Positions 729 through 17,441 of a stretch of 23,778 bases of DNA are shown one piece after another. Position numbers and translations under genes: made by a program. The DNA is from an uncultured Candidatus Saccharibacteria bacterium (GTDB lineage Bacteria; Patescibacteriota; Minisyncoccia; Phycocordibacterales; DATDWN01): contig CAYITW010000004.1 in NCBI GenBank assembly GCA_964366395.1, forward strand, positions 1 to 23,778. Reading direction: 5' to 3'. Numbering within the stretch: position 1 is the stretch's first letter; the number at the start of each line of letters is the position of its first letter. The notes under the pieces were generated by a model. That model searched no databases. It was not told where the DNA came from and saw only the letters and a program-made list of their open reading frames with translations.

Positions 729-1040
729 ATGCTAAAACAACCATATTGGAAAAAGCCTGTTAGAGTTCAAGATAGTGACTTTCTGATTGAAGTCTTGGTA
801 CCGGCAGTAGTTACGTGGGGTCTCCACAACTCCATAATTTGGCAGGATAGAGTTGGGGTTGGGTTTCGATTCAACACTCATTCAATGGTGGGATCTTGGC
901 ATAATGTAGATCCATTAACCAAGCGTACACCTTGCTTCAAACGTGTTGGCGAGGCACTTCCCGCAGATCAGGTTGATGCCCACAATCATAGCCGGAGTAT
1001 TAAAATTAAAAGGATATACGACAAACACAAAAGCGCCTGA
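729..1040 (+). CDS. hypothetical protein (103 aa), no recognisable domain
   Basis: ORF track. A GGAAGAGGTGG purine-rich ribosome-binding site lies just upstream of the ATG. The stop codon TGA sits inside the loop of a terminator hairpin. No family recognised. Divergent from ychF. Confidence 0.35.
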   Translation: MLKQPYWKKPVRVQDSDFLIEVLVPAVVTWGLHNSIIWQDRVGVGFRFNTHSMVGSWHNVDPLTKRTPCFKRVGEALPADQVDAHNHSRSIKIKRIYDKHKSA

Positions 1041-1056
1041 CCAGCGCTTTTTCTTT
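1029..1056. terminator. bidirectional rho-independent terminator (AAAAGCGC-ctgacca-GCGCTTTT + T-run, A-run upstream)
   Basis: Perfect 8-bp stem read directly from the sequence, flanked by an A-tract and a T-tract. It lies between the convergent ORF 729-1040 (+) and the response regulator (-). Confidence 0.6.
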
Positions 1057-1062
1057 GAAACT

Positions 1063-1455
1063 CTATTTTGTACTCTGAAGTATGTCTGTTATTTTTTTGA
1101 CAATTCCATCCAGACTTAAATCAGTTTTTATGATGTAGCCGTAAACATTGCTATCCATAGCTTTAGCGATATAGGTGGCCTCATCAAGAAGAGATAGAAC
1201 CATAACCTTTGCTTCTTTACCCCACTCGGTCTCTCTTAGTTGTTTTAGCATTTCAAGACCATCCATCACGGGCATAACCAAATCAAGTAGTATGATGTCG
1301 GGCTTAAACTCTAGCGCTTTCTTGAGTCCATCTTCTCCGTTAACTGCACCCATTGCATCAAAACCTGAAAGGTTGAACTTATCAACCAAAACACTGGTCA
1401 AATTATTATTATCATCAACAATAAGAACTTTCTTTTTGCTTTTTATTTTATCCAT
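1063..1455 (-). CDS. single-domain response regulator (CheY-like receiver domain only)
   Basis: ORF track. KVLIVDDN ... phospho-acceptor region PDIILLDLVMP ... conserved K in YIIK. 130 aa with no output domain. Starts 23 nt downstream of the histidine kinase stop (HK-RR operon). Confidence 0.85.
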   Translation of the reverse strand: MDKIKSKKKVLIVDDNNNLTSVLVDKFNLSGFDAMGAVNGEDGLKKALEFKPDIILLDLVMPVMDGLEMLKQLRETEWGKEAKVMVLSLLDEATYIAKAMDSNVYGYIIKTDLSLDGIVKKITDILQSTK

Positions 1456-1478
1456 ATTATTGTTATCTATTATATAGG

Positions 1479-2804
1479 TTAAAGTGTAATTGTAAAAGCA
1501 CTTCCTTTATTTTCCTGAGAAACAAAACTAATACTTCCGCCAATAGAGTCCATAACGGATTTTACTAAATACAAACCTAAGCCTGTACCTTGGCTATCAT
1601 TTAGTCCACGAACATTATCTGCCCTAAATAATTTAGTGAAAATCAAACCTTGCTGGGATTCGGGTATGCCCAAACCTGTATCTGAAACTGTGATTGTTTT
1701 TTCTCCACTTGATTCTTCAAAAGTGACAGCTATTGTACCTCCACTTGGAGTATATTTTAGAGCATTCGTTATCAAGTTTTGAATTACAATACGCAACAAC
1801 TTTGGGTCACTTTGTATGTTTTGAAACAACCCATTGTATTCTTTGACGATGTTGATTTGTTTTTTATTAATAAGAAAAGCGAGTTCACCAAAAATACTTT
1901 CAGTTAGTTCTTCTACGTTAGTCTGTTTCATATCTACAGTAAGAGAGCCCATCTCTATTCTTGAAACGTTAAGAAGAACGTCCACAAGGTCAATCATGTC
2001 TTCGTTGGCAGTATGCAACTTATCAACATACTCTTTATGTTTAGGGGAAAGCTCCCCGATATCTCCAGATGCCAACATCTCTGTGAGCCATTTTGTTGTG
2101 GCTAGTGGAGATCTTAGTTGATGTGAGGCCAGAGACACGAATTCTGTTTTCGCCTTGTCTAGTAGTTTCTGCTCTGTAATATCAAAAATCATAGCGAGTC
2201 CTGTGCTTGAAAAACTACCAGGATTTTTCATTTCAAAAATAGAGAGTTGAACAATGCGAGTCTCACCCTTTTTTGTAATCATTGAAACCTCCTTTCTGTT
2301 TATAGGCACATTTGACTTGTAGTAATCGAAAAGCCTCTCCGCCTGCTCCTTATCCTCTCCAGTTAAATATGAAAATAAATTTTTACCGACAATGTCTTCT
2401 GGGAGCACACTAAAAAAACGCAACGCAGCTTTGTTTGGACCACGAATCTCCGCATTTTTATCCAGCATGATGTAGGGCACTGGGGCACTATCATAAAGCC
2501 TTTTGAATTGTTCCTTTGAGAGTGCCAAATCCTTAGTTGCATTCCAAATTTCTAAATGGAACCGAGTATTGTTTGTAAGTAGTAAATAAATTACATATGA
2601 AATTAAAACAAAAATAACAGTAAGACCAATGAAAACCGTCACGAAATATATTTCAGCAGACTCCAAACCGCTTAAAAAATAATCTTGGGGATTAGAAATA
2701 AAATTTTTTATAAAATTTCTTGACAGAAAAAGGGTAGAAAGCAAGACAAGTAGAATGACGACAGAAGTTAGTAGATGTTTAAGATAATTTTTAACTGGAG
2801 ACAT
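1479..2804 (-). CDS. sensor histidine kinase: two N-terminal TM helices, PAS domain, HisKA (H-box SHQLRSPL), HATPase_c (G-box GTGLGLYLV)
   Basis: ORF track. ATG confirmed at 2802-2804. Hydrophobic N-terminus, PAS-like middle, canonical H-box and G1/G2 boxes. Confidence 0.9.
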   Translation of the reverse strand: MSPVKNYLKHLLTSVVILLVLLSTLFLSRNFIKNFISNPQDYFLSGLESAEIYFVTVFIGLTVIFVLISYVIYLLLTNNTRFHLEIWNATKDLALSKEQFKRLYDSAPVPYIMLDKNAEIRGPNKAALRFFSVLPEDIVGKNLFSYLTGEDKEQAERLFDYYKSNVPINRKEVSMITKKGETRIVQLSIFEMKNPGSFSSTGLAMIFDITEQKLLDKAKTEFVSLASHQLRSPLATTKWLTEMLASGDIGELSPKHKEYVDKLHTANEDMIDLVDVLLNVSRIEMGSLTVDMKQTNVEELTESIFGELAFLINKKQINIVKEYNGLFQNIQSDPKLLRIVIQNLITNALKYTPSGGTIAVTFEESSGEKTITVSDTGLGIPESQQGLIFTKLFRADNVRGLNDSQGTGLGLYLVKSVMDSIGGSISFVSQENKGSAFTITL

Positions 2805-2830
2805 TTATATAATGATAACTAAAATTAGAT

Positions 2831-2868
2831 AAAAGAAAAAGCTCAGTTGGATTTTACCCCAACCGAGC
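2831..2868 (-). terminator. rho-independent terminator of the MVP-homolog transcript (minus strand: GCTCGGTTGG-ggtaaaat-CCAACTGAGC followed by TTTTTCTTTT)
   Basis: 10-bp stem (9 Watson-Crick pairs plus one mismatch) with a T-tract on the minus strand. Sits between the MVP stop (2892) and the histidine kinase start (2804). Confidence 0.6.
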
Positions 2869-2891
2869 CTATGTCTATTTGTACAAAGTAA

Positions 2892-5459
2892 CTAGACTCT
2901 TGCTGCGCCCACGCCAACGCGTGCGCGAGAGCCGAGAGCCTTCATTGCATCTTCAAGAGGTGTTCCCTTGAAAAGCTGTCCGAGAATGTCAACTGTGCTG
3001 ACACCACTCAGTGCTGCCATTGGTCCAAGTGCTGTAGAGATTCTCTCCACCAATGCGTTGTCGGAGAGAGTGGTCAATGCAACAGAGAGCTTGTCGTCAA
3101 TCGCACCTGCGCGCTTGACGATGTCCTCAGTTTCAGCAAGCATCCGTTTGATCTCGAGCTCGATTTCAAGTCTCTTTGTTTCGAGCTTCTGATCATCAGC
3201 GATTTTCCTTCGAGCAACGTCAGCAAGGTTCAACTCGTCACGAGTTGCCCCTTCGGCAACTTGGTCAGCGAGTTTCCTGCTGGCAACTCGAGCCTCAGCT
3301 TCGATTCGAGCCAGATTGGTAGCGAGAGTGAACTCGATACCTTCTTTCTCGATTTCAGCCAAAGCTTCAGTTGTTTCTGCTGTCGCAGTTGCCTTGTTGC
3401 GCTTGATTTCCTCGGAGCGAACGGTTAGTGCGAGCTCACGTTCTTCCTTGGAAATACGAAGTGCACCTTGCAATGCTTCAGTTTGAGCACCGACAAGGAG
3501 TGCGGCGACTGTGCTGTTGTTGATCTTGACGTCCAAGACCTCAACATCATAGACGCGCATTCCATTTTCGACCATGGTACGACCCGCTCGCTTGCTCTTC
3601 TCATCCTGAATTCCGAGAACAGCATCACGAATGATGTCGATTGCCTTGGCGTAGAAAACTTCCACACCATGGTGTTTTGCGGTGTTGCGAATCAGTGACC
3701 GCAAATGGTCAACAAGGAACCTAACGTAGTTCTCAACTGCGAACCACCTCTCGGGTTCATCACCCTCGAAGTTGACTCGATATGAGAGATTGATGTCCAA
3801 CTGAACAAGATCAAGTGTTTCCACTTTGACAACATCCGAGACCTTGTTGTTCTTCACTCGCAGATACGCGGTGCCGAGCAATTTGTCATCGGTTTTCGGG
3901 GTACCAGTGGACAGTTCCATCGGCATCAGGTTTTCGTCGTACTGCAGAAGGATCGTTGCCGGTCCCTGCACAACTCGACGAGCACCTGACTTACTGACAA
4001 CCAGAACAGCGTAGCCCGTCCACACATCAATCGCCACAGCTCCCTCATACTTCGTATCGAGAGTTACTGTGCGTGGAGGTGTAAACGTAGTCCCGCGAGT
4101 GAATGATTCCGAAACAAGATGTTCCGGACCTCTGCCTCTCGAGGTGTATGCTGCCGCATTTCGCAACGAAGCTTCCGTCTGGAGATACTCTCCAGCAGGA
4201 AGATCTTTGCTTTGTGCAAGAAGTTCCTGATTGACCTGAAGTGCACGCTGGTTTCCTGGATACCAAAGACCAACGGTCTTTAGATCAAGAATCCGACGAA
4301 TGATTACTTCCTTGCGCGGATCCGGAAGAAGCATGGTTGGTCCATTGACCAAACGTACTTCACCCTTGTTCCGATCGAGGATATAACGCCCTTCACCTGC
4401 AGGCACAGCAACAGCATAGTGAATCGTCTGATCCCCATACTTGATGATGCTGTGTTCCTCACGTGGAAAGTAAATCGCCTGATCCTTCCCAGTGATGAAG
4501 AGTTCGTCACCCACCTTATGGTGTGTGGCTTCCTCTCCTTCGCCTTCAGTGTAGTCAGCGATGACCTTCACGTAGATTCCGCTGTTTTCGTTCAATTCGA
4601 TTGCGCGGAACTTTCGGTTGTCACCCTTGCTTACAAATGTTTCCGTTGGTGCGGGAAACACGACGTCTGGTCCTTGCACGTAGCGCTTGTTGCCGTCTTC
4701 GTTAAGAAGAATGCAGTACTCAAGTCGCTCGAGCGTAACCGCTTCGCGAACGTACGTTTCTCCTTTTTCCGTCTGTTCCGGAATAACTTCCACGCCGGTA
4801 GGCGGAATAAAGAAAGCGACTTCAGTTCCCTCGATCACCATGAGTTGCCCCATGGTAAATTCGGTGGGAGCTGACGTTTTTGTAAGCTTTGCTGCTGTCG
4901 CAGGTTGAGTCTGTACGACTTCTGGAAGTTTCTGCTCTCCACCCTCTCCACCTGGATCAGATTTCAAACCAGTTGGCTGTTGTGGTTTCAGAACCGCCTT
5001 GCCCCAGTTTGCCCGTGCTTCTTCGTCGTTGTAGACGCGAACCACGAGATACTGGTTTGAACGAAGATGGTGACCCTCAATCACTTTCGCCGTTTGTCCC
5101 GGCCAAAGTGGAAAATGAGTCGGTCCAGGAATGTTGATCCTGCGACCCATCTTTAGAGACACCATTACACTCGACGAACCTTCACGAGGGTGCTCTTCCT
5201 TGGTTGCATCCACTGGATTCGTCAGGACAAGATAGAACCCCTCAGGCGCATTTGGGTATGCCTGTATTGCTTCAGAAGCATCACACCTTTGAAAACGACG
5301 CGCTGATGGATCCCATTTGACCGGTTGGTCGGTATCCGACATGCTCGTTTTGTTTGGACCGACATTGACATTGATATGTCCCTTTGTCGTATCCAGCACA
5401 AACGCGAACTCACCTGGAGCGAGAACTAAGTCTCGACCCCTTCCCATGCTATCCGCCAT
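2892..5459 (-). CDS. Major Vault Protein (MVP) homolog, full-length architecture: N-terminal MVP/vault repeats, shoulder (SPFH-like) domain, long A/E/R-rich cap-helix, cap-ring tail
   Basis: ORF track; ATG at 5457-5459 with AAGGGAG 4-5 nt upstream. N-terminus LVLAPGEFAFVLDTTKGHINVNVGPNKT matches the eukaryotic MVP repeat-1 motif ([28 protein letters not shown]). A later repeat, RYILDRNKGEVRLVNGPTMLLPDPRKEV, matches [25 protein letters not shown]. The shoulder region FAVENYVRFLVDHLRSLIRNTAKHHGVEVFYAKAIDIIRDAVLG ... VYDVEVLDVKINN matches the MVP shoulder. A roughly 130-aa coiled coil follows. Eukaryotic MVP sequences are recalled from memory. Confidence 0.85.
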   Translation of the reverse strand: MADSMGRGRDLVLAPGEFAFVLDTTKGHINVNVGPNKTSMSDTDQPVKWDPSARRFQRCDASEAIQAYPNAPEGFYLVLTNPVDATKEEHPREGSSSVMVSLKMGRRINIPGPTHFPLWPGQTAKVIEGHHLRSNQYLVVRVYNDEEARANWGKAVLKPQQPTGLKSDPGGEGGEQKLPEVVQTQPATAAKLTKTSAPTEFTMGQLMVIEGTEVAFFIPPTGVEVIPEQTEKGETYVREAVTLERLEYCILLNEDGNKRYVQGPDVVFPAPTETFVSKGDNRKFRAIELNENSGIYVKVIADYTEGEGEEATHHKVGDELFITGKDQAIYFPREEHSIIKYGDQTIHYAVAVPAGEGRYILDRNKGEVRLVNGPTMLLPDPRKEVIIRRILDLKTVGLWYPGNQRALQVNQELLAQSKDLPAGEYLQTEASLRNAAAYTSRGRGPEHLVSESFTRGTTFTPPRTVTLDTKYEGAVAIDVWTGYAVLVVSKSGARRVVQGPATILLQYDENLMPMELSTGTPKTDDKLLGTAYLRVKNNKVSDVVKVETLDLVQLDINLSYRVNFEGDEPERWFAVENYVRFLVDHLRSLIRNTAKHHGVEVFYAKAIDIIRDAVLGIQDEKSKRAGRTMVENGMRVYDVEVLDVKINNSTVAALLVGAQTEALQGALRISKEERELALTVRSEEIKRNKATATAETTEALAEIEKEGIEFTLATNLARIEAEARVASRKLADQVAEGATRDELNLADVARRKIADDQKLETKRLEIELEIKRMLAETEDIVKRAGAIDDKLSVALTTLSDNALVERISTALGPMAALSGVSTVDILGQLFKGTPLEDAMKALGSRARVGVGAARV

Positions 5460-5539
5460 TGATACTCCCTTCTAGTTGACTTACTTTGTTTTGAAAGAAC
5501 ACTCCAAACCAGAGAACTTCTCGGGTTTGGACACCCAGA

Positions 5540-5567
5540 ATACTAATCATTCTTGTCCTTTTGTCAA
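5540..5567 (-). promoter_or_regulatory. sigma70-like promoter for the MVP homolog (minus strand TTGACA-16 nt-TAGTAT)
   Basis: Perfect -35 hexamer (plus-strand tgtcaa at 5562-5567) with 16-nt spacer and a 4/6 -10 hexamer (plus atacta at 5540-5545). About 80 nt upstream of the MVP ATG. Read by eye. Confidence 0.45.
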
Positions 5568-5601
5568 ATATTTATTTGGCTGAAATTTCACTCAAATTTG
5601 T

Positions 5602-5633
5602 ATAAAAAACACCGTCTGGTTTTACCCAGACGG
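5602..5633 (-). terminator. rho-independent terminator ending the NfeD-flotillin-CA-like operon (minus strand CCGTCTGG-gtaaaa-CCAGACGG + TGTTTTTTAT)
   Basis: Perfect 8-bp GC-rich stem immediately followed by a T-tract on the minus strand. Located 33 nt downstream of the 5666 stop codon. Confidence 0.7.
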
Positions 5634-5665
5634 CGCGTTGTGCCGAGAACTTTAGAGCCTAGGCC

Positions 5666-6319
5666 CTAAAGTTTTTCGAACACAACTGATGTACGATTGG
5701 AGTCAGCGAACTTCGCGAAGTATTGCTCAATCACAAGGTGACGAGGAAACACTCCGAGAAGATGTTGCGCGACTGAAGCAAGATCAAGCCGTTGCCTGTC
5801 CACCATATTCTTCACCGCTGTGAAGAAAAATGGTGCAGCCTTTTGCAACAACTTGTACTTTCCACAATCCTCATGGTTGATCAGGATCACCCGATCAATC
5901 GATGAGAACTGATTGACGTAGTTGACGGCACCTTCCGTGACATACCTCGTTTCTTTTGGAAAGAAGTTGCCAACGGTGAATGATGCTGCACCTCCACGAA
6001 TAACGAACGGAAGGTACTGACCTTCCTTTACGCCGATTTCCCTTTCGAGAAACTGACGAATCGGACCTTGAAAGCGAGGATCTCCACAGAAGATTGCCAG
6101 TACACGAGGTGTGGCAGTTGCGGTTGTTTGGTAGGCTTTCGGCCCCCTTACTTCCACAACAGGTTCTGTTCTTCGAATTGGAATCTCGTCTTTTTCGATA
6201 ACTCCAGCACTGGCATCATCTTGCTCAACCGCTTGAACCGTAGGTCTGGGTGGTTGAGATGCTGCACTACTTGCGCCTGGTCGTGATCTTTTTTGATCCA
6301 TTCTGTTTTTTCCTTTCAT
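5666..6319 (-). CDS. beta-carbonic-anhydrase-like protein (CxDxR ... HxxCG zinc-site motifs) with disordered Pro/Ala/Ser-rich N-terminal extension; start more likely the ATG at 6301 (AAAGGAAAA upstream) than 6319
   Basis: ORF track. Motifs FCGDPRF (Cys-x-Asp-x-Arg), FVIRGG (compare beta-CA FVxRNAGN) and VILINHEDCG (compare beta-CA hhhGHxxCG). The spacing between them is about 70 residues. Last gene of the flotillin operon. The assignment is by motif only. Confidence 0.5.
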   Translation of the reverse strand: MKGKNRMDQKRSRPGASSAASQPPRPTVQAVEQDDASAGVIEKDEIPIRRTEPVVEVRGPKAYQTTATATPRVLAIFCGDPRFQGPIRQFLEREIGVKEGQYLPFVIRGGAASFTVGNFFPKETRYVTEGAVNYVNQFSSIDRVILINHEDCGKYKLLQKAAPFFFTAVKNMVDRQRLDLASVAQHLLGVFPRHLVIEQYFAKFADSNRTSVVFEKL

Positions 6320-6352
6320 GAGGGAGGATGGATTTTACTCCACCCTCCCTCA
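6319..6352. promoter_or_regulatory. intercistronic perfect 9-bp GC-rich inverted repeat (TGAGGGAGG ... CCTCCCTCA, 16-nt loop) between flotillin stop and CA-like gene start
   Basis: Read directly from the sequence. On the minus strand the SD-like GAGGGAGGG arm pairs with a CCUCCCUCA arm that abuts the first in-frame ATG (6319). There is no U-tract, so it is not a terminator. Confidence 0.4.
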
Positions 6353-6367
6353 CAAAAATCGGAAATA

Positions 6368-8011
6368 CTACGAACTCGCCCTCTCAGAGACAGCGTGCCC
6401 CACTGACGGTTTGTCACCGTCTGGTCCCACTCCACTCAGCAAACCTTCAAATCCACTGAGGTCAATGCCCAAGGTCTTTGCGATACCCTGAACATCGATT
6501 CCTTTCGCTTTGAGTTGAGCCAGCGTCTGAAACACGGTGTCGGTCACAAGACCAGACATCTTGTTCATACCCTTACCATCCCCACCCACATCCACGATAC
6601 GGATGGAGTCAATGTTGGCAAGACCAGCTGCGATGGGTCCAAACATTGAACCCAAGAGCTTCGAACCAGCATCTCCGCTCTTTTCGAGAAGAGTGGGCAT
6701 GCGGTCGAGGATGAGGATGAGCTTTGCCGCTGGAGACATTGTCGCCATGGCATCGTTGAGTGCTCGGGTACCCTCTGCTCGCGCAACGAGAACTTCTCGT
6801 TCGCTTGCAGCTTGACCCTTCGCCTGAGCAACGAGGTTGAGCTCGGTAGCTTTCGAGCTACCTTCACCCTCGAGAACAGCCGCGTTCCTTCTGGCTTCAG
6901 CCGTCGTGCGGAGAACTTCCGCTTGAGCTTCGGCATCAAGAATCATCGTCTGCTTGCTAGCTTCGGCGCGCAGAATTGAAGTCGCCTTATCAGCTGTTGC
7001 CTGAGCAATAACTGTCGCTTGCAATTCTGCTGTTCGACGAACACCTTCCTTGGTGGCAACCTCAACTCGTGCCTGCGTTGACGCAGCATCTCGGGCTGCC
7101 TGTGCAACCTGAAGTGTTTGCTCCTGTGCAGCAGTCGCGATCTGACCAGCCATGTTGGCTTCGGCTTGAGCTGTCGATGTTTCCCTCAAGAAATCCGCCT
7201 TTTTCAGGTCCCGATTCTTGCCAGCCTCAGCAACTTTTGCATCGTTGTCTGCTTCGACAAGTGCTGCTGCTGTCCGAGCGTTGGAAACACTGATGTCCTG
7301 GTTGCGCTTTGCTTCGGCGGTTTTCGTTTCCGCTTCAGCTTTAGCGTCCGCAACGGCACGTTTGCCGAGCGCATCGATGTAACCTTCGGCGTCGATGATG
7401 TCTTGGATGACCAAGTTCATCAACTCGATACCAAAGCTCGCAAGTTCGGCAGCGGATTCCTCCACAACCTTCTTGTTGAACTCGTCACGATTTCGGAGAA
7501 GCTCATTGATGTCGAGCTTACCGATAATCGAACGAAGGTGGCCCTTGAGAATGTTCCGAACAAACTCTTCAATGGGATTCGAATCGGTATTTCCCTTTTT
7601 GGGACCGTTGTCCAGAACAAGTTTGTCGACGAGAGCCTCGATAGCTTTTCCGAGATTCTCAGGGTTGGTTGAAATCTTGCAAGTTGCCACTCCAGGCACA
7701 GACAACTTGACGTTGTCTTTGTTTGGAATGTCCTTTTCATTGATTTCAACCTGAAAGGCAGTCGTCGGGATTTCAAGGTAACCTTCCACCAGCGGACGCT
7801 GAATGCGTCCGCCACCGGACATGACCATGAAACCCTTTTGATGACCGTCTTTGTCTTTGTACTTCATGCCGTAGAAGATACCAACCCTTCCAGGAGGAAT
7901 CTTCTTGTAGCGTGAGACAGCGACCTTCAGACCGTAGAGAAACGAAAGGGCAACGACCAAGATGAGAATGGGGATTACCCATCCAACGATAGTGCTGACG
8001 ATTCCTTCCAT
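6368..8011 (-). CDS. flotillin-family SPFH/band-7 protein (YqiK/FloT-like): N-terminal TM anchor, SPFH domain, long Ala/Glu-rich coiled coil, C-terminal flotillin tail
   Basis: ORF track. The listed start at 8017 is GTG. The ATG at 8009-8011 has AAGGAGAG 9 nt upstream. Sequence runs from VGWVIPILILVVALSFLY (TM) through an SPFH core to the EA-repeat region AKAEAETKTAEAKRN... Classic NfeD-flotillin gene order. Confidence 0.85.
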   Translation of the reverse strand: MEGIVSTIVGWVIPILILVVALSFLYGLKVAVSRYKKIPPGRVGIFYGMKYKDKDGHQKGFMVMSGGGRIQRPLVEGYLEIPTTAFQVEINEKDIPNKDNVKLSVPGVATCKISTNPENLGKAIEALVDKLVLDNGPKKGNTDSNPIEEFVRNILKGHLRSIIGKLDINELLRNRDEFNKKVVEESAAELASFGIELMNLVIQDIIDAEGYIDALGKRAVADAKAEAETKTAEAKRNQDISVSNARTAAALVEADNDAKVAEAGKNRDLKKADFLRETSTAQAEANMAGQIATAAQEQTLQVAQAARDAASTQARVEVATKEGVRRTAELQATVIAQATADKATSILRAEASKQTMILDAEAQAEVLRTTAEARRNAAVLEGEGSSKATELNLVAQAKGQAASEREVLVARAEGTRALNDAMATMSPAAKLILILDRMPTLLEKSGDAGSKLLGSMFGPIAAGLANIDSIRIVDVGGDGKGMNKMSGLVTDTVFQTLAQLKAKGIDVQGIAKTLGIDLSGFEGLLSGVGPDGDKPSVGHAVSERASS

Positions 8012-8053
8012 GTGCACACTCTCCTTTTTTTCTGCTTCTTGTTTTAGTTTGAC

Positions 8054-8584
8054 TTACTGTTTGACTTCGACGATGACTTCACTTCCGTTTGTTCGAACTA
8101 TCGTAACTCCACTACCTTTTGGAATTGTAGTTCCATTGGTAGAACGTGCAAGATAGGTACGAACCTGGCCGGCAAGCATGACATCCACACTGCCAACCGA
8201 GGTATTACCGATTTCCACTGTGACAAATCCATTTTTCCCAATGGTTTGGTCAGTGCTAACGAGCGAGTTTGATTGTTGGCTGTATAGCACTCGCAGAATT
8301 GCCAACATGAAAAATCCGAGTAAAGAGCCTGCCACAAGACCGATGAGAGAGGATGCAATCCACCCATAACCGTTCCATGAAGCAATAGCCCCAGCTGCAC
8401 CAAATGCCATGATGAATGAACCAATGACCTTGAGCGAAAAAATGCTCACTGTCGGTTCACCATGAGTGACATCGTGGTCATGATCGTGGTCAAAGTGTGC
8501 ATCATGATCGTGGTCGTGACCAAAAAGGGCACCACCAACAAGCACGACGAAACCTAGAAACACAAGCGCTAGAAAGATAAGCAT
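8054..8584 (-). CDS. NfeD-like membrane protein (short NfeD/YuaF type: TM helices plus C-terminal OB-fold beta domain) carrying an (HD)n His-Asp repeat loop
   Basis: ORF track; ATG at 8582-8584 with AAGGAGA upstream. Three hydrophobic segments, then a C-terminal GFVTVEIGNTSVGSVDVMLAGQVRTYLARS...VIVEV beta-rich domain typical of NfeD. HDHDHDAHFDHDHDHD lies between TM1 and TM2. Positioned immediately upstream of the flotillin gene, as in yuaF-floT. Confidence 0.75.
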   Translation of the reverse strand: MLIFLALVFLGFVVLVGGALFGHDHDHDAHFDHDHDHDVTHGEPTVSIFSLKVIGSFIMAFGAAGAIASWNGYGWIASSLIGLVAGSLLGFFMLAILRVLYSQQSNSLVSTDQTIGKNGFVTVEIGNTSVGSVDVMLAGQVRTYLARSTNGTTIPKGSGVTIVRTNGSEVIVEVKQ

Positions 8585-8705
8585 CGACTTTCGTCTCCTT
8601 TTCCTTTTGTCTACGAGATTGTTATCGAAACTGCTATTAAGCTTGTCGATTTGTTCTTTGTATTAACTCCAATATTACATTTACAAAGAACTAAAACTGT
8701 CGCCA

Positions 8706-8734
8706 ACATTAAACTAAATATTTACTTTTGTCAA
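8706..8734 (-). promoter_or_regulatory. sigma70-like promoter of the NfeD-flotillin-CA-like operon (minus strand TTGACA-17 nt-TAATGT)
   Basis: Plus-strand tgtcaa at 8729-8734 and acatta at 8706-8711 with a 17-nt spacer. About 120 nt upstream of the NfeD ATG in an AT-rich intergenic region. Confidence 0.45.
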
Positions 8735-8865
8735 GGCTTTATTAGTGCCTAAAATAGTGTTGTTATAAGCCATAGTTTTGGGTTTAAAAATTAAACTAAA
8801 TTAATCAATTTTTATATAAAAAAGAAAACTCGCAACCACTTTGGTTACAAGTTTTTGAGAACAAA

Positions 8866-9081
8866 CTACCCTGGTTCTGCAAACGGGATGAAATTCTCCG
8901 CTCGAGTTCGCAACGGTCGTCCAGAGAAACGCCTCTGAATACGTCTGCCTCCCTTAGTTGGTTCGCATTCGTTGCCTTCGCGGTTTTTGTGAAGCTTGAG
9001 TAAACCCTTGGCGTCTACCTCAACCGCTAGCACACAGGTTGGACACAAACCGACAAGAATGGATTCATCAGATTTTCTCAT
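8866..9081 (-). CDS. hypothetical small Cys-containing basic protein (71 aa)
   Basis: ORF track. GAGAGGTG ribosome-binding site 5-6 nt before the ATG. GC content is like the surrounding island. CPTC...C with an Arg-rich C-terminal half. No family recognised. Confidence 0.35.
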   Translation of the reverse strand: MRKSDESILVGLCPTCVLAVEVDAKGLLKLHKNREGNECEPTKGGRRIQRRFSGRPLRTRAENFIPFAEPG

Positions 9082-9136
9082 TTCACACCTCTCTGTTTAG
9101 ATATTATGTAAATAATCTTTTTAAGTCAATCTGGTT

Positions 9137-9174
9137 TTATAAAAAAGAGGACGGCACAAATGTGCACCGCCCTC
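9137..9174 (-). terminator. rho-independent terminator after the LysM-protein gene (minus strand GAGGGCGGTGCAC-a-TTTGTGCCGTCCTC + TTTTTTAT)
   Basis: Imperfect GC-rich hairpin followed by a T-tract on the minus strand, 20 nt after the 9196 stop. Confidence 0.5.
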
Positions 9175-9195
9175 GCCAATTTTTACTTTCTGCCC

Positions 9196-10572
9196 TTACT
9201 TCTTCTTACCGAACATAGTCCGAAGGTCAAGTTTGACCGTTGGACCACATGAGGTTGGACTGGATTTTGAATTGTGTTCGTTTACGCATTCATAACCCAA
9301 CTTAAGGTTGAGAACTCCGCTCTGCCAAGGGTAAGCAAAGCTTAATCCTGTTCCAAATGTGTTGCGGTTATTCCAAGGGTAACCCTTGGAATCTGCGCTC
9401 GTCACGATCCATCCAGTTGGACTGACAAGAACTTTCCTGATTTGCATCATGGTAAGTCCTTGTTCCAAATGAATGGCGCCAATGAGATTCCCTCGTTCGT
9501 AGGGTGAAATGTATCCAGCATTCCACTCCACAAAACCAGGGGCTGTGAAGGTCCCGCTTTCAGACGAAGGGGTTTTCTGTTGCCAGAAAAACTGTCCAGT
9601 ACTGAAAGCCACTACGCCGAGTTTACTTTTCCCGAAACCCTTACTCCCCAAGCCTTCACGACGGCTCTCGAGAGCAACTGCTCCAGCGAACTCTATTTCG
9701 CCATGGGTGAAGGATTTGACGAATTTCAAACCCGTCTCAATTTCCACCCTATTATTCTGTGGTCGCCCTTTAGCGTCCTGCATGGCATTTAATGCCGTGT
9801 AATACAGAACCTCTCCCCCTCTAAATCGAGAGGCGACAATCCCTGCATCAACGTGAAAGGTGTCGATTTTGTTTCCATTGTCTTTTGGAGTGATGTCGTA
9901 AAAATTCCAAAAGTTTCCACGAGTTTGGAATTTCCGCTCTTCACTTGTGGTCAATGGCAGATTCTGTGGTACTACTGCAGGCAGAGGCTTAGACTCTTCC
10001 ACAAATCGTGGCGTTGGTGTGGACACTGGTGCTTCCTGCACAACAGACGTTTCAGCCGTCTTCGGGCGAAATGTCACAGTTCCTCCTAACCTTGCTGGAG
10101 GAGTAGCATGCACAATTAGAACTTCTGGTTCTTCTTGTGTCAGCATCTTCTCCGTCGAAGGAATCTTTTTGGTTGCAGTTTTCTTTCCTGTTCGTGCAAC
10201 TTTTGATTCCTTCACTAAAACAGTGGACAGATTGCAAAGAGTCATCGGAATCCGCAGTACCTGACCCACGTGAATCACGTACGGAGACTTGATGTCGTTG
10301 ACTTCAGCAATCAACTGGTAGAGGTAACCTCTGCCACCATATTCGTGCTCGGCAATTCTCCAAAGAGAGTTACCGCGAATTACGACGTAGGTCCTGTCAA
10401 TGCAGGCAGGTACCTCAATAACTTTGGATGTGGGTCCAACAACCGGTGTTGGCACAGCTACCACTTGACTCGGAACTGGGATGGGTTTTCCAGACGGCAA
10501 CCAATAGTGACCGATAGCTACACCCACCACAATACCAACAAGAAGCGTGACTAGGTTAAACAACTTCAGCAT
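9196..10572 (-). CDS. LysM domain protein with N-terminal signal-anchor, Pro/Thr-rich linker and a ~250-aa beta-rich (possibly barrel-like) C-terminal domain
   Basis: ORF track. AAAGGGGAG ribosome-binding site. LysM signature YVVIRGNSLWRIAEHEYGG...YQLIAEVNDIKSPYVIHVGQVLRIP. The C-terminal domain shows alternating hydrophobic beta-strand patterning and is not assigned to a family. Confidence 0.8.
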   Translation of the reverse strand: MLKLFNLVTLLVGIVVGVAIGHYWLPSGKPIPVPSQVVAVPTPVVGPTSKVIEVPACIDRTYVVIRGNSLWRIAEHEYGGRGYLYQLIAEVNDIKSPYVIHVGQVLRIPMTLCNLSTVLVKESKVARTGKKTATKKIPSTEKMLTQEEPEVLIVHATPPARLGGTVTFRPKTAETSVVQEAPVSTPTPRFVEESKPLPAVVPQNLPLTTSEERKFQTRGNFWNFYDITPKDNGNKIDTFHVDAGIVASRFRGGEVLYYTALNAMQDAKGRPQNNRVEIETGLKFVKSFTHGEIEFAGAVALESRREGLGSKGFGKSKLGVVAFSTGQFFWQQKTPSSESGTFTAPGFVEWNAGYISPYERGNLIGAIHLEQGLTMMQIRKVLVSPTGWIVTSADSKGYPWNNRNTFGTGLSFAYPWQSGVLNLKLGYECVNEHNSKSSPTSCGPTVKLDLRTMFGKKK

Positions 10573-10634
10573 CTTACTCCCCTTTCAAATAGTGTTTCGT
10601 ACTTAGCCCTTTTCAAATTACTGGCTTTCAAATC

Positions 10635-10661
10635 TATACAACAAAGAACTTCTTCGTTGTA
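10635..10661. promoter_or_regulatory. near-perfect 13-bp-arm palindrome ATACAACAAAGAA-c-TTCTTCGTTGTAT in the LysM-gene upstream region (candidate operator)
   Basis: Read directly from the sequence: 12 of 13 arm positions are complementary. Located 60-90 nt upstream of the 10572 start. Confidence 0.3.
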
Positions 10662-10709
10662 TGCCGAAAGACATCTGTCAGTATTACTACCATAAAATTT
10701 ATATTTTGT

Positions 10710-11288
10710 CTAGTATGCCTTCTTCCCATATTCTATAAATTTTTGCACCCACTTAGCACGATTTTCGGGAGATATTTTTTTCATGGGTCCGCATTTCTTC
10801 ATTTTTGTGTGAAAACCCGCAAACCAAAGAATTCCGTCTTGTATCTCATTTGTATTATCCCCAAAAAGAAACCGAGCGAGGAGTGGTGGAGAATCAGAAG
10901 TAACAAACACCCGAGCTGTTCTACCTTTCAAAAGTCTTTGCCAACCAATACCACTTGGGAGAAATTTATACGCAAATCCAGGAAGCCACGCTCTATCAAA
11001 AAGTCCTTTAAGAAGCGCGGGCATAGTTGACCACCAGGATGGGTAAATAATTACAAAATGATCACACCATCTTACATCTTGCTGAAACTGCTTTAAATCT
11101 GGTTCAAGTTCCTGAATAACTTTGTACCCATGATGTAGAATCGGGTCAAATTTCATATTACCAAGATTGACAATTTTTACTTCGTTGCCCTTTGACCTAG
11201 CCCCTTCTACATACGCGTTACCAAAATCTCGGCACATACTTTCTGTATCCGGATGCCCAACTAAAACAAGAATTTTTCGATATTTCAT
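10710..11288 (-). CDS. flavodoxin-like fold NAD(P)H dehydrogenase (quinone)/FMN-dependent reductase (Flavodoxin_2 family)
   Basis: ORF track (listed to 11312 with a GTG start). The likely start is the ATG at 11286-11288, giving MKYRKILVLVGHPDTESMCRDF..., the typical N-terminus of this family. Also WLPGFAYKF ... FVTSDSP. Confidence 0.8.
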   Translation of the reverse strand: MKYRKILVLVGHPDTESMCRDFGNAYVEGARSKGNEVKIVNLGNMKFDPILHHGYKVIQELEPDLKQFQQDVRWCDHFVIIYPSWWSTMPALLKGLFDRAWLPGFAYKFLPSGIGWQRLLKGRTARVFVTSDSPPLLARFLFGDNTNEIQDGILWFAGFHTKMKKCGPMKKISPENRAKWVQKFIEYGKKAY

Positions 11289-11377
11289 CTTAAATAATTC
11301 TATCATTTCCACTTAGTGTAGTCTATGTGGAAAGAAAATATAAAAAGCAAAAAAATGTGATACAGTTAAAAGAAACA

Positions 11378-12229
11378 ATGAACTTCTATTCTTCGAAGAA
11401 AAAACAAGTTAAACAAAAAAGAAAGTACTCTGGTATGGGTTGGCGGGTTATTGTTGCTCTATTTCTCGTCTCTTTCGGAAGTTTTTTAGGAATGATTTAT
11501 TACTACGACTTTGATTTAAAACTTCTGGCGACTCTAGAATTTTATGAAAATCTTGCCAATCCATCAATCCGTATAGTAAAAATCCAAGAAGGCTTACGGA
11601 AGGAGGAAATTGCTGATATTGTCGCAAAAAAACTCAACTGGAGTGAAAAAATAAAGGAAGAATTCATAAATGTGCATCTAGCACTAAATAGTAACAATTT
11701 GGAGGGAAAATACTTTCCGAAGACATATATGATTCCAAAAGATGAAGACCCGATTGGAGTTACAGCAGCTATGCTGAGAGAATTTTCAAAAGAAACGGCC
11801 GCGGTGAAAAAACCCAAATCAGCTCAAGTGATAAGCCAAGACACCGCACTTAAAATTGCCTCGATTATTCAAAGAGAGGCTGGTGGCAAAAGTGATATGA
11901 AGTTAATTTCTGGAATAATCTGGAACCGTCTTTTTAATGGAATGAAACTTCAAATAGACGCGACACTTCAATACGCAAAGGGCTCGGAAGAAGATGGTTG
12001 GTGGCAAAAGGTTGTGCCTAATGATAAAAATATTGACTCTTTTTATAATACATATTTATACACTGGTCTTCCCCCATCACCCATAGCTAATCCTGGAATT
12101 GCCGCAATCGATGCTGCCTACAATCCTCAAAAAACAAGTTGTATATTTTATCTTCACGACAAAAAAGGGAAAATTCACTGCACTAAAACTTATGAGGAGC
12201 ATAAAAGGAATATAGAGAGGTACTACTGA
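11378..12229 (+). CDS. mltG: endolytic murein transglycosylase MltG (YceG family)
   Basis: ORF track (listed from the GTG at 11327). The first ATG is at 11378. N-terminal TM segment, conserved ASIIQREAG, LQIDATLQYA and YNTYLYTGLPPSPIANPG motifs characteristic of YceG/MltG. Confidence 0.85.
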   Translation: MNFYSSKKKQVKQKRKYSGMGWRVIVALFLVSFGSFLGMIYYYDFDLKLLATLEFYENLANPSIRIVKIQEGLRKEEIADIVAKKLNWSEKIKEEFINVHLALNSNNLEGKYFPKTYMIPKDEDPIGVTAAMLREFSKETAAVKKPKSAQVISQDTALKIASIIQREAGGKSDMKLISGIIWNRLFNGMKLQIDATLQYAKGSEEDGWWQKVVPNDKNIDSFYNTYLYTGLPPSPIANPGIAAIDAAYNPQKTSCIFYLHDKKGKIHCTKTYEEHKRNIERYY

Positions 12230-12408
12230 TAAACTTCTTACTCGACACATATTTTAAAAAGCAATCTATCTAGCTCTTCTGAGCTAGCGAACTTCTCGTC
12301 GTTCAAGAAAATAATTGTCGGAATACCTCCCTTATTTTCTAAACTCCTGCGAAAGGCTTTTCTCAATATGTGATCTCGACGAAGTTTATAAGAAGATGGG
12401 ATGGAAAC

Positions 12409-12440
12409 AAAAAACCGGGCGCGCAAGGCGACCGGTTTTG
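12409..12440. terminator. bidirectional rho-independent terminator (AAAAAA-CCGGGCGC-gcaag-GCGACCGG-TTTT)
   Basis: GC-rich 8-position stem (7 pairs plus one mismatch), with an A-tract on the 5' side and a T-tract on the 3' side. Ends the mltG transcript on the plus strand and the 12631-12446 unit on the minus strand. Confidence 0.6.
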
Positions 12441-12445
12441 AGACA

Positions 12446-12631
12446 CTACAGGCCAGAGATTGTTGGGACAATCACGCCTGCAGTCATAGAATCCTTGCTC
12501 AAAGCAAGAACATTCTGAATCGTCTCAAAGAACACGAGGAGGGTGCTCTCGAGACCCGAAAAAATTTTCGGGGTAAGGAACTTAAGCACGACAATCGCCA
12601 GTCCAAGCCCCAAAACGCTAAGTATTTTCAT
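12446..12631 (-). CDS. hypothetical small hydrophobic-N-terminus protein (61 aa); coding status doubtful (no SD)
   Basis: ORF track. MKILSVLGLGLAIVVLKF is signal/TM-like. A terminator follows immediately after the stop. However, there is no purine-rich ribosome-binding site, unlike neighbouring genes. Confidence 0.25.
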   Translation of the reverse strand: MKILSVLGLGLAIVVLKFLTPKIFSGLESTLLVFFETIQNVLALSKDSMTAGVIVPTISGL

Positions 12632-12639
12632 ATACTTGT

Positions 12640-12880
12640 ATTTTTAAGGGTGGGCCTATGCTGTCCGACTGAACAGCATTTCGACTAATTGTCGGCGCCC
12701 CCCTCTTCCATGACAATCAGGCAGGAAGCCTGCCTGCGTAGGCAGGGAAGAAAAGAGGTTCCGATATATTTCAATGATCACTTACAATAAAATTGTAACA
12801 TGGAAAAATAGCATCTGCCATTGACAAAATTTGCTATGCAATATGTAGTATTTGAGGAAGAAACACCATCTTCCACCAAC
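12640..12880. other. GC-rich structured intergenic element (candidate cis-regulatory RNA/ncRNA): several stable hairpins and a triplicated GGCAGG/CCTGCC motif allowing mutually exclusive pairings
   Basis: Read directly. ATGCTGT/ACAGCAT hairpin (12658-12679). CGAC/GTCG hairpin (12682-12694). CAGGCAGG-aag-CCTGCCTG (12718-12736) followed by a third AGGCAGG copy (12740-12746). A CCTCTTCC segment (12702-12709) is complementary to GGAAG..AGAGG (12746-12758). The whole element is bracketed by terminators at 12409-12440 and 12880-12910. No match to tmRNA, RNase P or SRP consensus that I could recognise. Confidence 0.25.
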
Positions 12881-12910
12881 AAAAAAGGTGTCTCGCGACA
12901 CCTTTTTTTA
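12880..12910. terminator. bidirectional rho-independent terminator (AAAAAA-GGTGTC-tcgc-GACACC-TTTTTTT) after the SurA-like gene
   Basis: Perfect 6-bp stem with 4-nt loop and flanking A- and T-tracts. Located 4 nt past the 12914 stop. Confidence 0.65.
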
Positions 12911-12913
12911 TTT

Positions 12914-13591
12914 CTATAGATTTGTTTCAACCTCCGCCGCTGCCCTTAAGGACGCGATGAAAGTATTTACCAGTAATTGCTGTTTACTACCTATAATCTG
13001 TTGTTTGATTTGCTCAACAATATCTTTATATGCTGGTGCTCCTGTCTGACCCTTTACATTAGTATCGTAGAATTGCTGTGCTTCCGCATCTGTCGCTGTA
13101 GCTGAAGCTATATCAATATTTCTTAAAAGATAAGCCTGAATTGAAAGTTGTTTTGATATGTTTGCTCTGAACTGTTCCTCAGTAAGATTTGCTGCTGTTA
13201 GCTGTTCTTTCAATTTATCTGCCCCACCTGCTTGCGCAACAAGAATCTGAAACTGCTTTTCAACTTCTTCTGCTGAAATCGTGATACCGGCTTTAGCTAC
13301 TCCCTGGAGAACCAACTCATTATTTATAAGGTCCTCCATAACTTGAGTTCTAATTTTTGCCAACGAATCAGCACTCTCTGTATCAACTCCTTGGGTCTTA
13401 AGAGATAATATGGCTGAAGCTAGCTGGGCATCAAAAACACTTTTTGTTATTGTTTCTCCATTCACTTTTGCAACACCTTCAACAGCTACAGGTGAATTGG
13501 TTTTATTATATCCAAAATAAGCCAGAGCGGTGACTGCACCAGCAACTAACACTAACACTGCAACAGAAACTAATTTTTCTTTGTTAATCAT
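12914..13591 (-). CDS. SurA N-terminal-domain chaperone-like protein (PpiD/SurA/PrsA family chaperone module without PPIase domain), signal-anchored
   Basis: ORF track. N-terminal hydrophobic anchor LVSVAVLVLVAGAVTALAYF. Helical chaperone-domain pattern VFDAQLASAILSLKTQG...VMEDLINNELVLQ...EEQFRANISKQLSIQAYL. Confidence 0.65.
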   Translation of the reverse strand: MINKEKLVSVAVLVLVAGAVTALAYFGYNKTNSPVAVEGVAKVNGETITKSVFDAQLASAILSLKTQGVDTESADSLAKIRTQVMEDLINNELVLQGVAKAGITISAEEVEKQFQILVAQAGGADKLKEQLTAANLTEEQFRANISKQLSIQAYLLRNIDIASATATDAEAQQFYDTNVKGQTGAPAYKDIVEQIKQQIIGSKQQLLVNTFIASLRAAAEVETNL

Positions 13592-13666
13592 ATAAGTCTT
13601 TGTATGTTAATAATATATAATCTGGTATGCCCGCTATTCTAGCATGAGTATCAAAAAAATACCATA

Positions 13667-13710
13667 ATAAAAAAAAGGGCTGTGTATACCACTCCCGGTA
13701 CACACAGTCC
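13667..13710 (-). terminator. strong rho-independent terminator (minus strand GGACTGTGTA-ccgggagtggta-TACACAGCC + CTTTTTTTTATTAT)
   Basis: About 9-10 bp stem with one bulge, followed immediately by a T-tract of at least 8 on the minus strand. Located 12 nt after the 13722 stop. Confidence 0.7.
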
Positions 13711-13721
13711 TTGAACTCTTT

Positions 13722-14000
13722 TTAGGATCCTTGGTTGGGATCCATGTCCTCGAAGATGCACTCGTCACCATCACAGTACGGAATATTGTGACAGGCTGAA
13801 TTGATTCCACGAGGGCAGCGATCGACGTTGCTCACCGTGTTCAAATCAACACCACTGACCATATTGACCGGTATGAACCTCCCTCCACGAGAACCTGCCC
13901 TTGCTCGGATCAGCGGAGATTGTAGCTCTGCGAACATTGCTTCAACTTCCATCTGACGTGAATCCTGCTTCTCTTCTCGACGTCTCGACGCACCTGGCAT
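13722..14000 (-). CDS. GC-rich small Cys-rich protein (92 aa): Arg/Glu-rich N-terminus, C-terminal CPRGINSACHNIPYCDGDEC cluster (putative metal-binding)
   Basis: ORF track. Excellent SD AACGGAGGT 7 nt before the ATG at 14000. GC content is markedly higher than flanking genes. Last gene before the terminator. Confidence 0.5.
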   Translation of the reverse strand: MPGASRRREEKQDSRQMEVEAMFAELQSPLIRARAGSRGGRFIPVNMVSGVDLNTVSNVDRCPRGINSACHNIPYCDGDECIFEDMDPNQGS

Positions 14001-14088
14001 ACTCGACCTCCGTTACTAATGGTAGACCTCTTATTTGGAAATGTAAAGCCACAAACTTATCCACTGTTTTAGTTGTCCACTAAACACC

Positions 14089-16333: not shown

Positions 16334-16406
16334 GGGCCCTTAGCTTAGTTGGTAGAGCGCCTCATTTGCAATGAGGAGGTCACCAGTTCGAATCTGGTAG
16401 GGTCCA
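16334..16406 (+). tRNA. tRNA-Ala (anticodon UGC), 73 nt, CCA not encoded
   Basis: Cloverleaf folded by hand. Acceptor GGGCCCT/AGGGTCC with the G3:U70 Ala identity pair. D-arm GCTT-AGTTGGTA-GAGC. Anticodon stem CCTCA/TGAGG with loop TTTGCAA. T-arm ACCAG-TTCGAAT-CTGGT. Discriminator A. Confidence 0.9.
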
Positions 16407-16414
16407 CAGACGAC

Positions 16415-16445
16415 AAAAAGATCTGCACTGCTGCAGATTTTTTTG
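16415..16445 (+). terminator. rho-independent terminator after tRNA-Ala (ATCTGCA-ctgc-TGCAGAT + TTTTTTT), nested inside a CACAGACG/CGTCTGTG outer stem
   Basis: Perfect 7-bp stem plus a T-tract of 7, 10 nt after the tRNA 3' end. Confidence 0.7.
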
Positions 16446-16465
16446 CGTCTGTGGAAGCCGCAGGT

Positions 16466-16640
16466 ATGTTTTGTTAGCAAACAAAACAACCGAGGCGGGG
16501 TCGAGGAAGTTTCAATTCGACGGAATTGAAACTATCCGTGACCACAAAATTCTGGCAGGGTCGTGAAAATTTTGGTTTGGCGAAACTAAAATTATTCCTG
16601 ACCATAAAATTAGACCCAACGAACAGAAGTTCGTTGGGTC
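16466..16640. repeat. cluster of perfect palindromes and short direct repeats (TGACCAyAAAATT x2, TAAAATTA x2) between tRNA-Ala and the acyltransferase pair
   Basis: Three perfect palindromes: TGTTTTGTT-agc-AACAAAACA (9 bp), GTTTCAATTC-gacg-GAATTGAAAC (10 bp) and AGACCCAACGAAC-agaa-GTTCGTTGGGTCT (13 bp, 16609-16638). The last abuts the acyltransferase stop and is followed by AATTTTAT on the minus strand, so it is a probable terminator. Confidence 0.5.
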
Positions 16641-17327: not shown

Positions 17328-17441
17328 CACACCCCTCTCCGGCCACGATACTAACACAAAAGCGCTTGTATTCAAAACCAATTTCTAAATATAAATAAAT
17401 GGGACCCAGCGAACTTTCGCTCGCTGGATCCCCTATTAGCC

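Follow-up and report, generated by a model that had tools for sequence, protein, structure and literature searches.

The 23,778-nucleotide (nt) stretch of contig CAYITW010000004.1 (hereafter the window) contains, from about 2.9 to 10.6 kb and entirely on the minus strand, a block of six genes for a major vault protein (MVP) homolog, an NfeD-like membrane protein, a flotillin, a β-carbonic-anhydrase (β-CA)-like protein (p217), a 71-aa open reading frame (ORF) and a LysM protein, and these identities, which had been given in a first-pass annotation of the sequence, were all borne out. We conclude that the block is probably a foreign patch in which two independently mobile accessory modules, the MVP gene and an NfeD-flotillin-p217 operon, have come to lie side by side by chance. 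The host is probably a low-GC groundwater bacterium resembling the Parcubacteria of the candidate phyla radiation (CPR), and the patch of accessory genes would sit in its chromosome as four separate transcription units. One module would be an MVP gene of the bacterial type that stands alone between a promoter and a terminator of its own, and the other a classical NfeD-flotillin (SPFH2) operon lengthened by a third gene.

A profile of GC content in 500-nt windows along the contig shows values of 0.45–0.55 across 2751–8500 with a peak of 0.552, a dip to 0.38–0.40 around 8501–9250 that corresponds to an AT-rich spacer, and values of 0.43–0.49 from 9001 to ~10750, followed by a drop to 0.32–0.40. 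The left flank (1001–3000) lies at 0.35–0.41, with 0.35 at 2501–3000, and the right flank (10501–12250) at 0.32–0.40. The compositional break, previously put at 50–57% GC against flanks of 35–42%, is thus real (0.45–0.55 vs 0.32–0.42), with the upper value set slightly too high. The GC content at third codon positions (GC3) is 0.49 in the MVP gene, 0.42 in p217, 0.535 in the flotillin gene, 0.41 in the NfeD-like gene, 0.46 in the 71-aa ORF and 0.455 in the LysM gene, and this range does not overlap with the 0.20–0.35 of ten flanking housekeeping and signalling genes. The mean distance in relative synonymous codon usage (RSCU) to the host pool is 0.41–0.59 for the block genes, compared with 0.22–0.34 for all host genes of at least 200 codons; the response regulator (131 codons) also has a distance of 0.42, a value that is noisy because the gene is short. 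GC, GC3 and RSCU therefore all set the block apart from its flanks in the windowed GC and codon-usage check that had been proposed for it. Horizontal acquisition, as the first-pass annotation had implied, is the likeliest cause, considering the deviating GC3 and codon usage, the different contexts of the nearest relatives, and the GC excess of the same genes in other low-GC genomes.

The composition of MVP genes elsewhere was taken from a pattern scan that covered each species with one genome and yielded 424 MVP-encoding stretches in many phyla, including the CPR (Parcubacteria, Paceibacterota, Saccharibacteria, Magasanikiibacteriota), Myxococcota, Vulcanimicrobiota and Riflebacteria, and from which the 80 best loci (numbered with the prefix L, as are the further loci below) were examined with up to 10 kb of flank on each side. 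Across 76 loci, MVP GC follows flank GC closely (r = 0.95, slope 0.73), and in low-GC CPR contexts it exceeds the flanks by 0.10 (L001), 0.19 (L054) and 0.12 (L059), similar to the ~0.12 in the window. This bears on the possibility that the block is native and owes its GC to amino-acid composition (Ala/Gly/Arg-rich coiled-coil proteins) or to the codon bias of highly expressed genes, which we regard as unlikely. The block proteins are indeed richer in Gly, Ala, Arg and Pro (combined share 0.23–0.35 vs 0.14–0.23 in host proteins), the slope of 0.73 means that MVP genes usually stand a few points above their flanks in low-GC genomes, and the intergenic spacers within the block are AT-rich, as in the host. 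However, GC3, which is free of amino-acid constraint, is also 0.1–0.3 higher in the block, the observed GC of the window MVP gene (0.509) exceeds the ~0.44 predicted by the regression, and both modules are patchy and context-free in their distribution. Expression-driven codon bias was rejected as unlikely because, in the closest CPR locus (L001), GC3 is raised in the MVP gene but not in those for DnaK and GrpE. That the adjacency, or the island itself, is an assembly or binning chimera could be suspected from a metagenomic contig with two sharp changes in composition, but we consider this hardly credible: on either side the composition is again that of the host, and parts of the block are reproduced in two other assemblies, recorded as Hain_H43_01um and Hain_H43_02um, from the same groundwater well. 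Of these, L257 (6783 nt, 99.985% identical) spans 5593–12375 and thus the right boundary, and L258 (1100 nt, 100% identical) spans 5286–6385 and thus the p217/MVP junction with the first 174 nt of the MVP gene; this confirmation covers the right boundary and not the left one between the MVP and histidine kinase genes. A chimera was rejected on the basis of these two independent assemblies.

For the neighbourhoods of MVP, SPFH genes were screened with an iterated profile built from six diverse SPFH domains, which detects all 166 MVP shoulder domains; earlier screens with four seeds (tblastn, phmmer, jackhmmer) had barely detected a true Band_7 protein in L122. No SPFH, NfeD or p217 gene lies in the flanking sequence (up to 10 kb on either side of MVP) of any of 84 cellular loci, the five closest relatives included, and neither tblastn nor phmmer found a relative of the window flotillin or p217 in the 80 best loci. 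Three weak NfeD-like phmmer hits in myxobacterial MVP loci were dismissed, being a weak NfeD-domain ORF without an SPFH partner, a leucyl aminopeptidase, and an ORF without a family. All-against-all clustering of the 80 loci revealed no conserved MVP neighbour, since no family occurred in more than nine loci save for shadow ORFs inside MVP itself. The nearest relative, 75% identical and already named 'major vault protein' by NCBI, belongs to Parcubacteria Gr01-1014_20 and sits between a dockerin/He_PIG protein and YchF; the next four (62–67% identical) have a different context each, none with Band_7 or NfeD. The first-pass annotation had made its idea of a joint MVP-flotillin system depend on conserved MVP + flotillin + NfeD synteny in other genomes, and such synteny is absent from these cellular loci.

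The flotillin operon, on the other hand, is conserved without MVP. The two closest flotillins (67% and 59% identical) are encoded within NfeD-like/flotillin/p205–208 trios in other contexts. Searching metagenomes for p217 relatives turned up seven loci, of which L091–L094 have the order NfeD-like, flotillin, p217, L089 ends inside the flotillin gene, and L088 and L090 are short fragments with p217 only. Together with L082 and L083, this amounts to six complete trios and one partial trio, and the order is partly found in L084 as well. In none of the six complete and one partial loci does MVP stand beside the trio. The trio is also richer in GC than its flanks in L082 (0.464 vs 0.389) and L083 (0.577 vs 0.411). 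Because MVP and the trio are each GC-richer in other low-GC contexts, each looks imported on separate occasions. In two viral contigs of 205 and 225 kb (L177 and L178, ~9548–11728), an NfeD-like gene lies directly upstream of a flotillin gene whose product is 36–38% identical to that of the window, so phage-like elements carry the NfeD-flotillin pair as well.

Within the block, four transcription units with hairpin-plus-T-run terminators can be delineated, all on the minus strand, from promoter and terminator calls that are consensus matches only and whose total counts are no higher than the shuffle expectation. As had been claimed, the MVP gene appears monocistronic, with its own promoter-like site (5567–5540) and terminator (2870–2839). 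The short gaps between the NfeD-like and flotillin genes (36 nt) and between the flotillin gene and p217 (48 nt) fit one operon. The terminator that had been placed at 5602–5633 for this operon corresponds to a hairpin and T-run that we found at 5636–5609. The operon promoter that had been placed at 8706–8734 is present as a sequence, but its −10 element is too weak for the scanner.

The first-pass annotation had proposed that MVP and flotillin/NfeD form a functional membrane-associated vault-like compartment, or that they represent an evolutionary intermediate between SPFH cages and vaults. We find it improbable that the two modules were acquired together as one system, be it such a compartment or two cooperating SPFH-superfamily cages, but several observations point that way and weigh against a chance neighbourhood. 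The MVP gene and the flotillin operon are adjacent and share a strand. In RSCU they lie 0.219 apart, a distance like those found within the host, while each lies ~0.46 from the host pool; because their codon usage is nearly alike, the two may have been acquired jointly, in one event, from an unseen donor. An extended −35 motif, the 10-mer TTGACAAAAG, occurs exactly and only twice in the window, at the −35 sites of MVP (5558–5567) and of the operon (8725–8734), both on the minus strand and each with AATAAA just upstream; this coincidence was noticed post hoc and may reflect similar promoters or chance. Of 82 MVP loci on phage-like contigs, 8 carry an SPFH gene that shares the strand of MVP and is no more than 6 kb away from it, and one of the eight (L176) has an MVP that falls in the sister group of the window MVP clade. 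The comparison with the cellular loci (8/82 vs 0/84) gives a one-sided exact p of ~0.003 by our own arithmetic, for loci that are not independent, four of them coming from one lineage. Against our reading of the block as a foreign patch also counts that it bears no marks of a classical island: the window ORFs contain no integrase or transposase domain, no direct repeats flank the block apart from short ones at chance level, and no tRNA adjoins it, the sole tRNA being tRNA-Ala(TGC) at 16334–16407, outside the block. A classical mobile island was rejected on these grounds (no integrase, att-like repeats or adjacent tRNA).

Against one system stand the 84 cellular MVP loci, all the closest relatives among them, without SPFH or NfeD, the conservation of the flotillin trio without MVP, and the terminator and promoter that part MVP from the operon; the same synteny evidence leaves the evolutionary intermediate unsupported. 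MVP moreover has no predicted hydrophobic or membrane segment. The phage SPFH partners are of at least four different types, are not orthologous to the window flotillin and have no NfeD partner beside them (the gene upstream of the phage Band_7 gene in L176 was considered as NfeD and rejected, as it is not NfeD-like). In the opposite direction, MVP is present in just 6 of 80 viral flotillin loci, a single lineage accounting for all of these. We therefore read the phage SPFH-MVP proximity as a weak, phage-specific tendency that lends no support to a system in the window. There is a broader version, which we regard as unlikely. In it, MVP and SPFH proteins would work together within a portion of the mobile gene pool, and the window would be the first chromosomal case of a pairing otherwise found only on large phage-like contigs, where at least four lineages have it; the matching codon usage and −35 motif would then reflect joint acquisition and co-regulation. 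Within this version, a joint scaffold role of MVP and flotillin in nucleic-acid conflict is conceivable, as MVP and a flotillin both lie inside an RNA-repair-like cluster in one phage lineage. The chance juxtaposition of two mobile modules remains our preferred reading. The features of the block and the phage SPFH genes are listed in Table 1.

Table 1. Genes and predicted transcription signals of the block in the window, and SPFH genes near MVP on phage-like contigs
Feature	Coordinates	Strand	Remarks
Terminator-like hairpin + T-run after MVP	2839–2870	−	13-pair stem then TTTCTTTT; between MVP stop (2892) and histidine kinase start (2804)
MVP homolog, bacterial type, 855 aa	2892–5459	−	Pfam MVP_shoulder 6.2e-27, Vault_3 2.1e-9, weak Band_7 over the shoulder
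Promoter-like site, MVP	5540–5567	−	TTGACA-16-TAGTAT, 10/12 matches, ~80 nt upstream of ATG at 5459
Terminator-like hairpin, end of NfeD-flotillin-p217 operon	5609–5636	−	11-pair stem, 7 GC pairs, then TTTTTAT
p217, third operon gene	5666–6319	−	Disordered N-terminal tail + C-terminal β-CA-fold domain (residues ~70–217)
Flotillin (SPFH2/FloT-like), N-terminal membrane anchor	6368–8017	−	Band_7 2.4e-27
NfeD-like (YuaF/YqiJ-type) membrane protein	8054–8584	−	Three hydrophobic stretches, H/D-rich loop, C-terminal β domain
Promoter-like site, NfeD-flotillin-p217 operon	8706–8734	−	TTGACA-N17-TAATGT read directly; −10 weak, below scanner detection
Hairpin + T-run after 71-aa ORF	8825–8855	−	14-pair stem
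71-aa ORF	8866–9081	−	Shine-Dalgarno-like GAGAGGTG before ATG; own promoter-like site + terminator; called as gene in L257
Promoter-like site, 71-aa ORF	9101–9129	−	Consensus match
Terminator-like hairpin after LysM gene	9147–9174	−	Hairpin + T-run
LysM protein, membrane-anchored, 458 aa	9196–10572	−	LysM 2.7e-9 at residues 62–109; hydrophobic segment 1–26
Band_7/SPFH genes near phage MVP	L100 2970–3869; L122 12669–14468; L151 4165–5703; L160 15334–16716 (also L156, L166, L168); L176 7642–8733		All those checked are Band_7

The assignment of the first module to the MVP family is based on profile matches, because the AlphaFold2 (AF2) model, built from 14 sequences, was too poor for a fold search. 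The shoulder domain (PF11978) scores 94.4 bits against a cut-off of 25 at residues 537–646, a single MVP repeat reaches Pfam Vault_3 (2e-9, residues 492–526), and phmmer aligns residues 243–380 with the repeat region 276–410 of a solved MVP chain. When built into a profile, 14 homologs match the solved rat and human MVP chains with an E-value of 9e-27, aligning profile positions 460–773 with chain positions 465–811. In the AF2 model, the predicted local distance difference test (pLDDT) score is 48.7 overall; residues 1–537 are modeled as a low-confidence, β-rich region, and the shoulder and a 135-residue helix (649–783) score 70–87. This continuous predicted helix, aligned to the MVP chain up to 811, corresponds to the long cap-helix coiled coil that follows the MVP shoulder. 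The weak Band_7 match over the shoulder agrees with the first-pass description of this domain as SPFH-like, a relationship that was already known (cited in PMC3762200) and that alone does not tie MVP to the flotillin gene. By homology, the window MVP would be soluble and would combine putative repeat domains with an SPFH-like shoulder and a long cap helix. It may assemble into a particle, and judging from its family it is most likely a shell-forming protein that acts alone.

The window MVP is ~50% identical to the myxobacterial and Bacteroidota MVPs, and its similarity to eukaryotic MVP is low (E-value of 1e-13 with a single sequence). The bacterial MVPs of Corallococcus, Plesiocystis, Microscilla, Saprospira and Herpetosiphon (Daly et al. 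2013, PMC3762200; Sokolskyi 2019, bioRxiv 10.1101/872010) share with it the length of ~850 aa, a putative repeat region, the shoulder with weak Band_7 similarity and the long C-terminal helix, whereas the host of the window gene is a probable groundwater CPR bacterium in which the gene is compositionally foreign; we found no paper that links MVP to the CPR. With the eukaryotic vault, which consists of MVP, TEP1, PARP4 and vault RNA (PDB 4V60, 4HL8), the window MVP shares a collinear last repeat domain, shoulder and cap helix, but the sequence similarity is low, the window ORFs contain no TROVE/TEP1 or PARP Pfam domain, and Rfam reveals no vault RNA in the window. MVP relatives are also found on viral contigs, as described for phage-encoded MVPs (Santos et al. 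2023, bioRxiv 10.1101/2023.11.10.566534), from which the window differs in being chromosomal: it has no phage hallmark genes, and housekeeping genes lie on both sides of the block. We found 192 IMG/VR contigs with an MVP relative, the best of which are 53–58% identical to the window MVP, and four phage-like contigs form the sister group of the window MVP clade in a neighbour-joining tree without support values. With homologs in CPR genomes and on many phage-like contigs, MVP is a widely exchanged prokaryotic and viral gene and not a eukaryotic speciality.

In the second module, the flotillin matches human flotillin-2 (1e-28, residues 95–406) and flotillin-1 (7e-25), and also NCBIfam FloT (2e-56), but its 192 bits lie far under the equivalog cut-off of 700, so that it does not count as a FloT equivalog. 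Its hydrophobic segment comprises residues 1–36, and the database gene call of 547 aa makes ATG at 8011 the likely start. The NfeD-like protein has hydrophobic segments at residues 1–25, 45–69 and 74–102. The Pfam NfeD C-terminal domain is matched by all seven members of its family (best 5e-6), with the window copy itself at 21.1 bits, below the cut-off of 29.1, and the top two PDB matches of the family profile are YuaF (2k14, 0.003) and the stomatin operon partner PH1510-C from Pyrococcus (3wwv, 0.015). Between the first two membrane segments lies a His/Asp-rich loop (GHDHDHD...HDHDHD; residues 23–41, corresponding to 8462–8518) that is kept in all seven NfeD-like partners (window, L082, L083, L084, L091, L093, L094). 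From its sequence this loop may bind metal, and we note it beside a third gene that resembles a zinc enzyme.

This third gene product, p217, has the β-CA fold. The motifs of the β-CA zinc site are CxDxR and HxxC, and in the p217 family alignment the residues C78, D80, R82, H149 and C152 are invariant, which, going by these motifs, we take to be the Cys-His-Cys zinc ligands and the Asp-Arg dyad. The protein falls below the Pfam gathering scores for Pro_CA (16.4 bits vs 25.7) and Pro_CA_2 (13.6 vs 30), with a best family member at an E-value of 8e-5, and its family is small (~502 clusters at 50% identity among 1.84 billion proteins). It differs from the β-class carbonic anhydrases and their relatives (COS/CS2 hydrolases, LCIB) in these scores, in being shorter, in its long disordered N-terminal tail and in being encoded in a flotillin operon.

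It is established that NfeD and SPFH2 genes form operons and that these are transferred laterally as units (PMC2636767), and the window operon resembles yuaF-floT(yuaG)-yuaI of B. subtilis and yqiJ-yqiK of E. coli (Hinderhofer et al. 2009, PMC2636767) in that a short NfeD-like gene with three transmembrane segments lies directly upstream of a gene for an N-terminally anchored flotillin of ~500–550 aa in a laterally mobile unit. It differs from yuaF-floT-yuaI in that its third gene encodes a β-CA fold and not the GNAT acetyltransferase YuaI, and in that its NfeD-like protein has the conserved His/Asp loop. The operon with a β-CA-fold third gene therefore appears to be a variant of the NfeD-flotillin operon; we found no paper that joins flotillin, β-carbonic anhydrase and an operon. 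The flotillin-1/2 complex has been solved as a membrane-attached cage (PMC11348225), and by analogy the window flotillin would be anchored by its N-terminal hydrophobic segment and oligomerize into a membrane-attached cage. Work on YuaF and PH1510 has revealed that the NfeD-type OB domain binds its partner (PMC2636767, PMC4208085), suggesting that the three-pass NfeD-like protein would bind the flotillin through its OB domain. As for p217, it is probably a zinc enzyme that the flotillin assembly recruits or regulates, possibly via its disordered tail. We found no description of such an operon variant with a metal-binding-looking NfeD loop; it provides a concrete client candidate for a flotillin cage in bacteria.

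Above all, the block exemplifies the acquisition of accessory genes by an ultra-small bacterium from groundwater. If an MVP-flotillin link were true, it would help to address where vaults come from and what they do, which has long been an open question. Another approach to the function of prokaryotic vault proteins could be guided by the phage loci. In 22 of 80 viral MVP loci (L144 7221–22060; L145, L149, L152, L154–L157, L159–L163, L165–L173), a DUF2828+DUF7788 protein is encoded directly upstream of MVP, followed in the same 22 clusters by an RlaP-type nucleotidyltransferase, two or three metallophosphoesterases, NADAR, an RNase T-type exonuclease, a PHA02142 OB-fold protein (presumably RNA ligase-like, from its family name) and an AAA_33 kinase. 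This RNA-repair-like cluster hints at an RNA-related role of the phage MVP and, by analogy, recalls the RNA and ADP-ribose partners of the vault. None of its genes occurs in the window or in any cellular MVP locus, and the DUF2828/DUF7788 protein, which may be Ro60/TROVE-like, has no informative match among solved structures or in the literature. In a cellular locus, L087 (256–3547), the genes divergent from a 67%-identical MVP encode NAPRTase, an isochorismatase (nicotinamidase-like), a NUDIX protein and a faint ADP-ribosylglycohydrolase, an NAD-salvage/ADP-ribose theme.

Some further observations concern the remaining genes and the surroundings of the block. The 71-aa ORF has no Pfam, NCBIfam or PHROG match and no homolog in any fetched locus, and the C-terminal ~300 residues of the LysM protein match no Pfam or NCBIfam family. 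The MVP gene is followed immediately downstream, across a terminator and on the same strand, by a histidine kinase gene and then a response regulator gene (1063–2804). A kinase-regulator pair also follows MVP in two Myxococcota loci (L017 ~13036–14055, L024 ~11131–12147), probably by chance, such genes being common. On the other side of the block, a segment of 684 nt (12230–12913; GC 0.424) has no convincing ORF and no Rfam family at gathering score, the tRNA-Ala being the only Rfam match in the window. The product of the gene at 14089–14979 matches the PKD domain weakly and the CFI-box-CTERM domain, a putative C-terminal sorting signal, strongly (NCBIfam 9e-29). GC3-rich genes are found outside the block as well, at 13722–14000 (0.505), 16641–17381 (0.417) and 17442–18167 (0.512), and the host is therefore mosaic at more than one place. 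The first of these is a 92-aa ORF without a family match, block-like in composition but 3 kb outside the block. The other two are acyltransferase genes (GC3 0.42 and 0.51) that lie ~230 nt from tRNA-Ala(TGC) and form with it a second GC3-rich patch (16334–18167), which may be another acquired segment.

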